A DNA stretch of 64,000 nucleotides, from NCBI RefSeq assembly GCF_988243305.1, contig NZ_OZ547136.1, one strand, 5' to 3'. Positions 1 to 7,233 of the stretch are shown here, in pieces. Every line of letters begins with the position of its first letter. The stretch's first letter is position 1. The notes beneath the pieces were generated by a model. The model searched no databases. It was given only the letters and a program-made list of their open reading frames with translations, and was not told where the DNA came from. The translations under genes and the position numbers were made by a program.

Positions 1-129
1 CATCCGGGAGGATTACTCGCCTTGCGGCTCGCCCTTCGGGCCGTTGCTAAAGCAACGTTATCCTCCCTGGTGCCTGCGGTTATTACCGCCACCTCTTCTA
101 TACCTTCATCGCTGAAAGTACGTAGAATA

Positions 130-206
130 TGGTGCATCCGGGAGGATTCGAACCTCCGACCGCTCGGTTCGTAGCCGAGTACTCTATCCAGCTGAGCTAC
201 GGATGC
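130..206 (-). tRNA. argV: tRNA-Arg (anticodon ACG)
   Basis: Reverse complement reads GCATCCGTAGCTCAGCTGGATAGAGTACTCGGCTACGAACCGAGCGGTCGGAGGTTCGAATCCTCCCGGATGCACCA, with ACG in the anticodon loop and a CCA end. Which paralog of the arg tRNA cluster this is, is uncertain. Confidence 0.9.
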
Positions 207-209
207 AAA

Positions 210-302
210 TGGCGGTGAGGCGGGGATTCGAACCCCGGATGCAGCTTTTGACCGCATACTCCCTTAGCAGGGGAGCGCCTTCAGCCTCTCGGCCACCTCA
301 CC
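210..302 (-). tRNA. serV: tRNA-Ser (anticodon GCT), long variable arm
   Basis: Reverse complement reads GGTGAGGTGGCCGAGAGGCTGAAGGCGCTCCCCTGCTAAGGGAGTATGCGGTCAAAAGCTGCATCCGGGGTTCGAATCCCCGCCTCACCGCCA; class II tRNA with GCT anticodon. Confidence 0.9.
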
Positions 303-576
303 ACACGCCTCTTACGAGTGCTTCGAAGAACTTGTTTATCGCTCATCGTCGCTGCGTGGCGCACATATTACTTTCTGAGACTTATAAGTCAAACAATTTT
401 TCCCACACTTTTATCGTTTGCACACTTCACGCTCAATTAGTCTGTAAAAACGTCAAAAAGAGTGTTTTATCAACAGAAAAACGGAGGTCTGTCAGATAGC
501 AGTAATGCAAAAAAATGGAGACTTAAGTTGAATGAACGGGAGTAAAGCGAAAAGACTATAGAGTGAAGGAGAAATT

Positions 577-602
577 TTGAGGGTGCGTCTCACCGATAAA
601 GA
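577..602 (-). terminator. Hairpin just downstream of csrA (GCGTCTCA / TGAGACGC stem), putative terminator
   Basis: Inverted repeat read directly; the following U-tract is weak. Confidence 0.4.
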
Positions 603-617
603 TGAGACGCGGAAAGA

Positions 618-803
618 TTAGTAACTGGACTGCTGGGATTTTTCAGCCTGGATACGCTGGTAGATCTCTTCACGGTGAACAGAAACTTCCTTCGGGGCAT
701 TTACGCCAATACGTACCTGGTTGCCCTTTACCCCTAAAACTGTCACGGTGACCTCATCCCCAATCATGAGGGTCTCACCAACTCGACGAGTCAGAATCAG
801 CAT
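618..803 (-). CDS. csrA: Carbon storage regulator CsrA
   Basis: 61 aa [64 protein letters not shown], recognised as CsrA. Confidence 0.97.
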
Positions 804-1037: not shown

Positions 1038-3668
1038 TTATTGCAATTTCGCGCTGACCCAGCCTTTCACACTGGCTAACGCTGCAGGTAAGGCCGCAGC
1101 ATCCGTACCACCGGCTTGCGCCATGTCAGGACGTCCACCACCCTTGCCGCCCACCTGCTGAGCGACCATACCAATCAGTTCCCCTGCTTTCACACGATCT
1201 GTGACGTCCTTAGATACGCCTGCAATCAGAGAAACCTTACCTTCGGCTACCGTTGCCAGCACGATAATTGTCGACCCCAGCTGATTTTTTAAATCGTCAA
1301 CCATGGTACGCAACATTTTCGGCTCAACACCGCTAAGCTCGCTAACCAACAGCTTAACACCATTAACATCAATTGCCTTACTGGAAAGATTTGCGCTCTC
1401 CTGTGCGGCAGCTTGTTCTTTAAGCTGTTGTAACTCTTTTTCCAGCTGACGCGTACGTTCCAGTACTGAGCGCACTTTATCAGCCAGATTATTGCTATCG
1501 CCTTTCAGCAGATGCGCGACTTCGTTTAAGCGATCGCTGTCTGCATGAACGGTGGCGATAGCGCCTTCTCCGGTTACCGCTTCGATACGACGAACGCCTG
1601 CAGCAGTACCCGATTCAGAGATGATGCGGAACAGACCAATATCACCAGTGCGGCTGGCGTGAGTACCGCCACACAGCTCGGTGGAGAAATCGCCCATGCT
1701 CAGCACGCGTACGCGCTCATCATACTTCTCGCCGAACAGCGCCATAGCGCCTTTCGCTTTCGCCGCTTCGAGATCCATGATGTTGGTTTCGATAGGCAAA
1801 TTGCGACGAATCTGTGCGTTCACCAGGTCTTCGACCGCACGAATCTCTTCTGGTTTCATCGCTTCGTTGTGTGAGAAGTCGAAGCGCAGCACTTTGTCGT
1901 TAACCAGTGAACCTTTCTGCGATACATGAGTACCCAGAACCTGGCGCAGCGCAGCGTGCATCAGGTGCGTTGCGGAGTGATTCAGACGAATACGGGCGCG
2001 ACGAGCTTCATCAACATCAGCCTGCACCGCGTCGCCCACTTTCAGAGAACCCGCAGCAAGTTTACCGATGTGACCAATCGCCTGGCCGTATTTCTGCGTA
2101 TCTTCCACCGCAAAGGAGAAGTTAGCGCCTTTCAGTTCGCCTTTATCACCAACCTGACCGCCGGATTCCGCATAGAATGGCGTTTGATCCAGCACGACCA
2201 CAGCTTCCTGGCCTGCATTGATGGCATCAACCGCTTTACCATCAACAAACAGCGCGGTCACTTTGCCGTTCAGTTCCAGATGGTCATAGCCTTTAAATTC
2301 AGATGCGCTGTCAACACGGATCATTGCGTTGTAATCGGCACCAAAGCCGCTGGCTTCGCGCGCGCGACGACGCTGCTCTTCCATTGCTGCTTCGAAACCA
2401 GCTTCGTCAACTTTGATGTTGCGCTCACGACAAACATCAGCCGTCAGGTCAACCGGGAAGCCATAGGTGTCGTACAGACGGAAAGCCGTTTCACCATCCA
2501 GCGTATCACCAGAAAGTTTTGCCAGCTCTTCATCCAGCAGCGCCAGACCGCGCTCCAGAGTACGGGCAAACTGCTCTTCTTCAGTCTTCAGCACCTGCTC
2601 AACCTGCGCCTGCTGGCGTTTCAGGTCTTCACCCGCAGAGCCCATTACGTCGATCAGCGGACCAACCAGTTTGTAGAAGAAGGTTTCTTTCGCGCCCAGC
2701 ATATTGCCGTGACGCACTGCGCGACGAATGATACGACGCAGTACATAACCACGGTTTTCATTGGACGGCATTACGCCATCCGCGATCAGGAACGCACAAG
2801 AACGAATGTGGTCAGCGATTACGCGCAGCGATTTATTGCTCAGATCGGTCGCGCCAGTGACTTTCGCTACCGCCTGGATCAGCGTGCGGAACAGGTCGAT
2901 GTCATAGTTAGAGTTAACGTGTTGCAGCACCGCAGCAATACGCTCCAGACCCATACCGGTATCTACAGACGGCTTCGGCAGCGGTTCCATCGTGCCATCT
3001 GCCTGGCGGTTGAACTGCATGAAGACGATGTTCCAGATCTCAATGTAGCGATCGCCGTCTTCTTCCGGACTTCCCGGAGGGCCACCCCAAATGTGGTCGC
3101 CGTGATCGTAGAAGATTTCGGTGCACGGGCCGCACGGACCAGTGTCACCCATCTGCCAGAAGTTGTCAGATGCGTATGGCGCACCTTTGTTATCGCCGAT
3201 GCGAATAATACGTTCGCGCGGGATCCCTACTTCTTTTTCCCAGATTTCGTAGGCTTCGTCGTCGCTTTCATAGACGGTAACCCACAGACGCTCTTTCGGC
3301 AGGGCAAACCATTTTTCGCTGGTCAGCAGTTCCCATGCAAACTGAATGGCATCGTGTTTGAAATAGTCGCCGAAGCTGAAGTTGCCCAGCATTTCGAAGA
3401 AGGTATGGTGACGCGCGGTGTAACCGACGTTTTCCAGGTCGTTGTGTTTACCACCCGCACGCACGCAGCGTTGGGAAGTGGTAGCGCGGGAATAATTACG
3501 CTTGTCGAGCCCAAGGAACACATCCTTGAACTGGTTCATCCCGGCGTTGGTAAACAACAAAGTTGGGTCGTTATGGGGTACCAGGGAGCTGCTGGCAACT
3601 ACCTGATGTCCCTTACTATGGAAAAAGTCGAGAAACGCCTGACGGATCTCAGCGGTGCTCTTGCTCAT
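1038..3668 (-). CDS. alaS: Alanine--tRNA ligase
   Basis: 876 aa ORF with class II aaRS core and C-terminal editing/DHHA1 region, recognised as AlaS; conserved position next to csrA and recX. Confidence 0.97.
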
Positions 3669-6147: not shown

Positions 6148-7233
6148 TTACTGCACGCGCGCCAGCGCCACGGCTTGTCCTAACTGCCAGACCGCCATTG
6201 CGTAATGGGTACTGTGGTTGTAACGGGTGATGGTGTAGAAGTTCGGCAGACCGTACCAGTACTGGTAACCGGTACCGACATCCAGACGCAGCAGGCTGGC
6301 TTGTTGATGGTTGCCCAGCGGCTGCTGTGGCGTTAAACCTGCCGCGGCAAGCTGCGAAATGCTGTACTTGGTTTTGAAGCCATTTGGCAAGCCTGGAGCC
6401 TGACCGTTTGCCATCACCGCAACCTGATCACCTTTCACCCAGCCGTGCGCTTTGAAATAGTTCGCCACACTACCGATCGCATCAACCGGATCCCACAGGT
6501 TGATATGCCCGTCGCCGCTGAAATCTACCGCATATTGTTTGTAAGACGACGGCATAAACTGTCCGTAGCCCATCGCCCCGGCAAAGGAACCTTTCAGATT
6601 GAGCGGATCGTCCTGCTCATCGCGCGCCATCAGCAGGAAAGTTTCCAGCTCGCCAGAGAAATACTCCGCGCGGCGTGGGTAGTTAAATGACAGCGTTGCC
6701 AGCGCATCGAGGATACGGGTTTTCCCCATCACGCGCCCCCAGCGGGTTTCAACGCCGATAATCCCGACGATAATTTCCGGCGGTACGCCATACACCTGCC
6801 ACGCGCGATTCAACGCATCTTCATACTGATTCCAGAAAACCACACCATTCTGCACGTTGTCCGGCGTAATAAATTTTTTGCGATAACGCAGCCATGCGCC
6901 GTTCGGACCTGATGGCGGTTTCACCGAAGTAGTTGGTGCCTGGTTATCCATCAGCCGCAATACCGAATCCAGACGTTTCGCCTGGGAGAGAATTTCCTGC
7001 AACTGCTGACGATCGAAACCGTGTTTGTTCACCATTTTGTCGATGAACTGCTGGGCATTCGGGTTATTAGCGAAATCGCCGCCCATCTGCATCACATTGT
7101 GCTGCGGCTCAAGCAGGAAGCCGCCAGACGGCGTTCCGGTGGTCGTTTCAGTCTCAGTAGGTTTTGGCTTGCTGGTACAGGCGGCAAGCAACACAAAAAG
7201 GGGAAGCAATGTTACATAACGACGCTTGAACAT
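6148..7233 (-). CDS. mltB: Membrane-bound lytic murein transglycosylase B (lipoprotein)
   Basis: Start trimmed to MFKRRYVTLLPLFVLLAAC (lipobox), recognised as MltB. Confidence 0.93.
   Translation of the reverse strand: MFKRRYVTLLPLFVLLAACTSKPKPTETETTTGTPSGGFLLEPQHNVMQMGGDFANNPNAQQFIDKMVNKHGFDRQQLQEILSQAKRLDSVLRLMDNQAPTTSVKPPSGPNGAWLRYRKKFITPDNVQNGVVFWNQYEDALNRAWQVYGVPPEIIVGIIGVETRWGRVMGKTRILDALATLSFNYPRRAEYFSGELETFLLMARDEQDDPLNLKGSFAGAMGYGQFMPSSYKQYAVDFSGDGHINLWDPVDAIGSVANYFKAHGWVKGDQVAVMANGQAPGLPNGFKTKYSISQLAAAGLTPQQPLGNHQQASLLRLDVGTGYQYWYGLPNFYTITRYNHSTHYAMAVWQLGQAVALARVQ

Follow-up and report, generated by a model that had tools for sequence, protein, structure and literature searches.

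The window, i.e. the whole stretch of 64,000 nucleotides that was analysed, starts in the serV-arg tRNA cluster of Escherichia coli, which adjoins csrA and alaS, all these genes being encoded on the minus strand. Its first 620 bases are matched in 5425 of 5426 complete E. coli genomes, in several of them at 100% identity. One genome that is 100% identical over these 620 nt (L001, where window positions 1-620 are found at 3001-3620, the window coordinate being the L001 coordinate minus 3000) provides the sequence that continues the cluster past the window edge. The features found at this end of the window, and one that lies beyond it, are the following:

1-129, minus strand: tRNA-linked repeat (TLR), assigned to raV, 129 of its 134 nt being in the window (RNA position p = 130 - window coordinate); 133 of the 134 positions are identical to the unit between argV and argY in K-12
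1-14, minus strand: copy of the tRNA-Arg(ACG) 3' end, which forms the 3' terminus of the TLR, 14 of its 19 nt being in the window; identical to 135-148
130-206, minus strand: argV, tRNA-Arg(ACG), the source of the copied 3' end (ARAGORN; Rfam tRNA, 67.1 bits; annotated in matching genomes)
210-302, minus strand: serV, tRNA-Ser(GCU), the first gene of the operon (ARAGORN and Rfam; annotated in matching genomes)
365-392 (L001 3392-3365), minus strand: promoter-like site TTGACT-16-TAATAT upstream of serV (consensus match only)
L001 2335-2321, minus strand, outside the window: terminator-like hairpin, about 107 nt past the last TLR (consensus match only)

In the stretch that was scanned, the site upstream of serV is the sole promoter-like site on this strand and the site after the last TLR the sole terminator-like one; together, the two would delimit an operon. 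That no terminator-like site was detected between the tRNAs of the scanned stretch suggests that the whole unit is co-transcribed, and serV-argVYZQ is indeed handled as one transcription unit in the literature. Following transcription past argV and raV, an ordinary 64-nt spacer leads to the next tRNA-Arg (as seen in L001), and a second unit, 90% identical to the first, is found behind the last tRNA-Arg of the cluster in the genome type to which the window belongs. Matches on the opposite strand were discarded: the tRNA-Arg(tcg) reported by ARAGORN at 115-186 (+) is an antisense artefact of argV, and the Rfam matches 'Plastid-ycf2' and 'Plastid-psbI-rps4' at 132-206 (+) and 213-267 (+) are sub-threshold antisense artefacts of argV and serV.

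The tRNA 3' end at the edge of the window

Within the 64 kb, the sequence CATCCGGGAGGATT has two exact matches, one at positions 1-14 and the other, at 135-148, inside argV (130-206, minus strand); no additional site appears when one mismatch is allowed. With 0.04 matches expected by chance against two observed, and two matches being reached in none of 100 shuffles, a chance match is rejected. Past position 14 the two copies part ways (ACTCGCC versus CGAACCT), so that no tRNA body follows the first one. Thus, a preliminary description of the locus, which had noticed at 1-14 a segment identical to the 3' part of the neighbouring tRNA-Arg and not continued by the rest of a tRNA, is borne out on both counts, the identity being 14/14; its placing of the fragment 'downstream of tRNA-Arg' is also correct in the sense of transcription, the genes being on the minus strand. 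Neither the repeat family to which the fragment belongs nor the pairing partner of the tRNA-like end, an internal arm, was recognized there.

The copy is in fact longer than the window reveals, the window edge cutting through the repeat with 14 of its 19 nt inside and the last five (CACCA) just outside. These five bases are deduced from four genomes that are 100% identical; in L001 the bases preceding the window start are TGGTG, so that the full copy amounts to 19 nt plus one T. On the transcribed (minus) strand it consists of the 3'-terminal 19 nt of tRNA-Arg, AATCCTCCCGGATGCACCA, and a further T common to both places, and therefore spans tRNA-Arg(ACG) from A58 of the T loop to the CCA end. 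The 19/19-nt copy with the shared T is also present in the identical genomes L001 and L002 and in K-12. A truncated but real tRNA gene at the window edge is rejected in view of the divergence after 14 nt (after 19 nt in the full-length genomes).

A catalogued tRNA-linked repeat

The complete unit measures 134 nt and begins at the base right after the CCA of argV (window position 129, descending on the minus strand). It lies directly downstream of a tRNA gene, on the same strand and within an operon; its 3'-terminal 18-19 bp reproduce the 3' end of the gene just upstream (14/14 in the window, 19/19 in the identical genomes and in K-12); and it corresponds to raV, one of the 22 TLRs catalogued in K-12. 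Judged by its sequence, then, window 1-129 is raV, the TLR found behind argV in the E. coli serV-argVYZQ operon.

According to the historical account in PMC8144298, TLRs were first seen in 1978 in the tyrT locus (Egan & Landy 1978, cited there) and catalogued in 1999 (Rudd 1999, cited there); ten loci of K-12 together carry 22 of them. The strain table of the same paper (2021) lists 'argY/Z/Q, raQ/Z/V' in a strain deleted for all 22 TLRs, which shows that the unit after argV had already been given a name, raV; the designations raV, raZ and raQ of the arg-linked TLRs are EcoGene names as used there. No function is known for the TLRs of tRNA operons, an early claim for the Tyr-linked rtT RNA having been withdrawn (PMC8144298).

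The element is, therefore, already known and catalogued, and is neither the trace of a new mobile element nor a broken tRNA gene. With the E. coli TLRs raV, raZ and raQ it shares every defining feature; the difference lies in the number of units in the cluster, namely three in K-12 (after argV, argZ and argQ) against two in the window's genome type, and is not one of substance. The raV, raZ and raQ units are annotated by neither RefSeq nor Rfam.

Anatomy and predicted fold

From 5' to 3', the unit consists of two 5' hairpins, a 5' arm (GCACCAG followed by GGAGG), a conserved three-hairpin module and the tRNA-like end AAU-CCUCC-CGGAUGC-ACCA. Its RNA has a minimum free energy of -57.7 kcal/mol (z = -5.4 relative to shuffled controls), and the structural elements are, in the direction of transcription:

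96-127, minus strand (RNA 3-34): 5' hairpin, right after the tRNA (minimum-free-energy fold; five of eight pairs changed on both sides across genera)
76-89, minus strand (RNA 41-54, GCGGUAAUAACCGC): second small hairpin (minimum-free-energy fold; not in the consensus structure of 13 aligned sequences)
60-73, minus strand (RNA 57-70): 5' arm GCACCAGGGAGGAU, pairing with the pseudo-tRNA 3' end (inverted repeat, fold, compensation in Hafnia)
19-57, minus strand: conserved three-hairpin module in the place of the T loop, common to the tyrT RtT and to Lys-, Pro- and 5S-linked repeats
57-42, minus strand: P2 of the module, CGUUGC/GCAACG, invariant
41-31, minus strand: P3 of the module, GCCC-GAA-GGGC, invariant
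28-19, minus strand: P4 of the module, variable but compensated (covarying)

The 5' arm is best described as the 5' strand of an acceptor stem (GCACCAG, against GCAUCCG in the tRNA) fused directly to the 5' strand of a T stem (GGAGG). As it pairs with the tRNA-like end, the RNA would terminate in an acceptor/T-stem-like helix with a free, single-stranded ACCA tail, the module standing in place of the T loop. This closing helix is imperfect, with a bulge or mismatches, and 12 of its 14 positions are paired without gaps. A score of ungapped 14-nt complementarity with G-U pairs allowed discriminated poorly, its background being 9-11 of 14, and a fold-based swap test was used instead. In this test, 36 of 49 units have a cognate 3' end that forms 8 bp or more with the upstream arm, a number that drops to 4 of 49 when the 3' end of another class is put in its place.

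Covariation was assessed on 13 arg-linked units from five genera (Escherichia, Enterobacter, Phytobacter, Brenneria and Hafnia). In this alignment 92.5% of the cells assigned to pairs are indeed paired, compared with 31-49% when the partners are slid by one to three columns; for helix 2, formed by the 5' arm and the tRNA-like end, the value is 94%, and in eight pairs both partners have changed. With a score of 0.228 against 0.120 in shuffles, the covariation was equalled by none of 500 shuffles, a significance that is overstated by the phylogenetic relatedness of the sequences. Hafnia provides the clearest single example: the acceptor stem and the T stem of its tRNA-Arg differ, its TLR ends in the Hafnia version of the tRNA 3' end, and its 5' arm carries the matching G-to-A change, by which a G-C pair becomes A-U. 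Altogether, the invariance of P2 and P3, the compensated stems and an arm that tracks the neighbouring tRNA point to selection on the structure of the RNA or at least on the neutralization of a stray tRNA end.

Relatives behind other stable RNA genes

The Rfam family RtT (RF00391) matches the arg-linked units over its full model with 25.9, 29.4 and 33.8 bits (E = 2e-5 when the search is limited to the unit alone), and the window copy, which lacks the last 5 nt, with 21.5 bits; the gathering score of the family is 45, and Tyr-linked units reach 133-137 bits. Along CGGCCCGAAGGGCGAG...CGAGUAAUCC the arg units are nearly the same as the RtT model, and the alignment of arg and Tyr units runs through P2, P3 and the variable P4, and then through GAGUAAUCC into the cognate tRNA end. 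Membership in Rfam RtT was, nevertheless, rejected: the 3' half is homologous, but scores below the gathering threshold mean that the arg units do not belong to the family as Rfam defines it.

The comparison with RtT/rttR of the tyrT-tyrV operon reveals the same architecture, with a homologous 3' half and a closing helix between 5' arm and tRNA-like end. The Tyr units are, however, longer (175-178 nt, against 134 nt for the arg units) and contain extra hairpins with GGUUCGA that the arg units lack; they end in the 3' end of tRNA-Tyr, the arg units in that of tRNA-Arg; and there is no tpr-like ORF in the arg units. The RrA, RrB and RrF repeats, found after 5S rRNA in rrnA, rrnB and rrnD (PMC8144298), belong to this TLR class as well: 5S-linked units contain the P2-P3 module, their 3' end repeats that of the stable RNA upstream, and the RNAs are released from the operon transcript by processing (PMC8144298). 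They differ in being placed between two terminators; GGA motifs are described for them, as is in vitro binding to Hfq and CsrA (PMC8144298), and in the CsrA-sponge predictor InvenireSRNA the 19 TLRs of tRNA operons score below 0.01 (PMC8144298). Finally, 3'ETS-leuZ, a functional tRNA spacer RNA, resembles raV in that it is part of a polycistronic tRNA precursor and could outlast it as a separate molecule, but it contains no copy of a tRNA end and acts as an sRNA sponge.

The distribution of the module core was surveyed with one genome per species in 100,044 species; the range of hosts given here is a lower bound. Among the matches listed (at least 120 stretches), about half of which are chance matches in GC-rich genomes, it is found behind tRNA-Tyr, tRNA-Arg(ACG), tRNA-Lys, tRNA-Pro and 5S rRNA in many Enterobacterales, and behind tRNA-Arg(CCG) in Marinobacterium. 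Every one of these copies finishes with the 3' end of the gene next to it, in Marinobacterium only partly so. In Marinobacterium lutimaris (L029), outside the Enterobacterales, tRNA-Arg(CCG) is followed by tandem TLR units of the long form, in which the first 11 nt of the 3' end (AATCCCTCCAG) match the neighbouring tRNA before diverging and the complementary 5' arm (CTGGAGGG) is kept.

The module was also encountered in other settings. The P2-P3 part (AACGTTGC-N4-GCAACGGCCCGAAGGGYGA) occurs in intergenic repeats of Pectobacterium zantedeschiae (L092, L093) and of a Pasteurellaceae MAG (L077, L078), with no tRNA gene within several hundred bases and, in L093, in tandem; its presence away from tRNAs suggests that this RNA/DNA motif may be mobile or in wider use. 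In a Pseudomonadales MAG (L105, around position 6990) the module directly follows a sequence resembling the 5' part of tRNA-Ser (GGTGAGGTGTCCGAGTGGTCGA...), with tRNA-Ser(GGA) about 100 nt further on, an arrangement, seen in the region from about 130 nt upstream to 70 nt downstream of the module, that differs from that of the enterobacterial TLRs.

Presence, absence and copy number in E. coli

The 115-nt body of the unit is present in 5156 of the 5426 E. coli genomes, in one to six copies each; all 10,557 matches are chromosomal, none is on a plasmid and none is annotated. No sign of a species in which nearly identical copies had recently reached new tRNA sites was seen, either among these 10,557 matches as regards plasmids or in the four genomes inspected for position (L001, L002, L003 and L125), where all copies lie within the serV-arg cluster. 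Of the 5426 complete genomes, 3708 (about 68%) contain the junction that runs from the TLR through argV to serV, and in the remaining 32% or so, ST131 and O157:H7 among them, the match begins only at the tRNA. In O157:H7 (L125), argV is directly followed by a 64-nt spacer identical to the one that otherwise comes after raV, from which it follows that the two alleles differ by a clean indel of 134 bp with the 19(+1)-nt direct repeat at its borders. The same genome carries, after the third tRNA-Arg, a 102-nt spacer (1380-1481, minus strand) in which the first 40 nt or so of a TLR, i.e. the 5' hairpin, are fused to ordinary spacer, in other words a truncated TLR devoid of the tRNA-like end. The position of the units within the arg array varies between genera.

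These data identify the 19(+1)-nt direct repeat as a recombination substrate that gives rise to gain or loss of 134 bp and to a variable copy number, and the indel, the copy-number range and the shifting positions fit unequal recombination between repeats. They also qualify the second suggestion of the preliminary description, namely that the fragment may simply reflect repetitive spacer of the arg-tRNA cluster, with an ordinary conserved spacer in all strains named as the finding that would speak against a trace of recombination. When the upstream extension and spacer comparison that it had proposed are carried out, the unit turns out to be absent at the O157:H7 site and thus not to be a spacer conserved in all strains. 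It is, then, a spacer element of the arg cluster, as supposed, but with about 68% of 5426 genomes carrying it at this position it is not an ordinary one present in every strain. The existence of strains with an empty site, together with that of the strain deleted for all 22 TLRs, implies that any function of raV is dispensable under laboratory conditions.

Proposed transcription and processing

Taking these observations together, we consider it probable, largely by analogy with related repeats, that raV is a TLR carried in a polycistronic tRNA precursor, that its tRNA-like end is processed so as to yield a folded spacer RNA, and that its repeat recombines. In this scheme, raV would be co-transcribed with its neighbours in the serV-arg precursor, and its tRNA-like end would be handled by the same 3'-end machinery as that of a tRNA, with RNase E cutting in the U-rich sequence just past CCA and exonucleases trimming next. 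By these steps the spacer would be released as a discrete, strongly folded RNA.

The processing step is modelled on the ends of two relatives, RttR of the tyrT operon and RrB of rrnB. In K-12, rttR (L004 767-937) is annotated as an RNA of 171 nt, and its 3' end coincides exactly with the pseudo-CCA of a Tyr-linked unit. The 3' end of RrB maps 3 nt past its 5S-like repeat, and the authors suggest that this repeat is recognized like the RNase E site downstream of 5S (PMC8144298). In the searchable literature no report on expression or end mapping specific to raV was found. As there is no genuine T loop in the closing helix, it is uncertain whether RNase P, the CCA-adding enzyme or others that sense the elbow of a tRNA would recognize it.

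Alternative explanations

Without any role at the RNA level, raV would be a harmless, passive by-product of unequal crossing-over or slippage in the tandem tRNA-Arg array. The exact boundaries of the indel at the direct repeat, the one to six copies per genome, the 32% or so of empty sites, the truncated unit of O157:H7, the genus-dependent positions in the array and the existence of a strain deleted for all 22 TLRs are all expected under this explanation. However, it leaves unaccounted for the invariance of P2 and P3 and the compensation in P4, the 5' hairpin and the closing helix across five genera, the retention of the same module after five RNA genes and as far out as Marinobacterium, and a 5' arm that tracks the identity of the neighbouring tRNA, so that we regard a purely passive origin as unlikely.

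An explanation that goes further than the precursor-and-processing scheme would see the TLRs, including raV, as genuine mimics of tRNA instead of spacers, in which an acceptor/T-stem minihelix with an NCCA tail would be capped by the strictly conserved two-hairpin module (CGUUGC-N4-GCAACG, GCCC-GAA-GGGC) replacing the T loop, both strands of the helix co-evolving with the neighbouring tRNA. If so, the enzymes whose substrates are tRNA 3' ends might be decoyed, sensed or titrated by the TLR RNA, or a protein might bind to it, and the module in intergenic repeats unrelated to tRNA could point to a mobile or recruited RNA motif. We view this possibility as distinctly improbable.

The remaining explanations concern the origin or the coding capacity of the unit. 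Homologous bodies behind at least five RNA genes, each with its cognate end, the presence/absence polymorphism with exact boundaries and the P2-P3 module in tandem intergenic repeats away from tRNAs (Pectobacterium, Pasteurellaceae) could be read as the signature of a small mobile element, non-autonomous, for which the 3' ends of stable RNA genes would be the targets and whose insertion would duplicate about 19 nt. But the unit has no terminal inverted repeats, we know of no transposition chemistry that yields a duplication of 19-20 nt, a class-specific 5' arm would not travel with a mobile copy, and deletion between the repeats explains the E. coli polymorphism equally well; such an element is, hence, very unlikely.

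A related idea is that an element once inserted in the 3' end of argV through an integrase, duplicated the attachment core and left 134 bp behind. The segment from the T loop to the CCA end of tRNAs is a typical crossover region of tRNA-targeting integrases, and it is this segment that is duplicated in raV; moreover, the 19(+1)-nt direct repeat flanks a 115-nt insert and O157:H7 has an empty-site allele. In these respects, i.e. a partial copy from T loop to CCA downstream of an intact tRNA and the empty-site allele, raV does resemble the tRNA repeats that integrases of prophages and islands leave behind. It differs from them in comprising only 134 bp, with no integrase, cargo, island or credible ORF in the mere 115 nt between the repeats, in sitting between co-transcribed tRNA genes inside the operon, and in being structured and conserved, with an internal arm complementary to the cognate repeat. 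The same body also follows tRNA-Tyr, tRNA-Lys and tRNA-Pro genes and 5S rRNA, which to our knowledge is not an integrase target, and tandem arrays of units exist. Therefore, of the alternative offered in the preliminary description, that partial tRNA repeats can be remnants of integration or recombination at tRNA genes, the recombination part stands, whereas an integration scar of a mobile island, in 134 bp without integrase or cargo inside the serV-argVYZQ transcription unit, does not and is judged extremely unlikely.

Lastly, the notion that nucleotide conservation reflects a small basic protein like tpr may practically be dismissed: K-12 tpr (MRSFDQGSTRAPARERCRRQRPEGRSAQR; L004 788-877, minus strand) does read QRPEGR through the conserved module and the last arg-linked unit (L001 2401-2499, minus strand) has a TTG-started ORF of 32 aa in the same frame (MRQQRPEGR...), but in raV a TAG in the loop of P2 closes the frame with no start codon beyond, which excludes a tpr-like peptide there, and variation compensates stems rather than being synonymous.

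Implications for the TLR family

The observation from which this analysis started, namely a tRNA end at the edge of the window, is correct and non-random, and its residual interest lies in the function of TLRs and in a gap of annotation. The arg-linked TLRs (L003 352-484, 625-759 and 1040-1173) receive nothing from RefSeq, and the RtT model recognizes the Tyr-linked units (L004 411-1238). As it covers only the Tyr type, the arg-linked TLRs go unannotated and will recur as odd partial tRNAs in sequence scans; the other non-Tyr classes (Lys, Pro, 5S) are probably affected likewise. On the practical side, raV offers a clean presence/absence marker in E. coli, being carried by about 68% of the complete genomes. 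As for the family as a whole, it has been without an established function for more than 45 years, and the conserved module and the helix that tracks the neighbouring tRNA argue that something in it is under selection.
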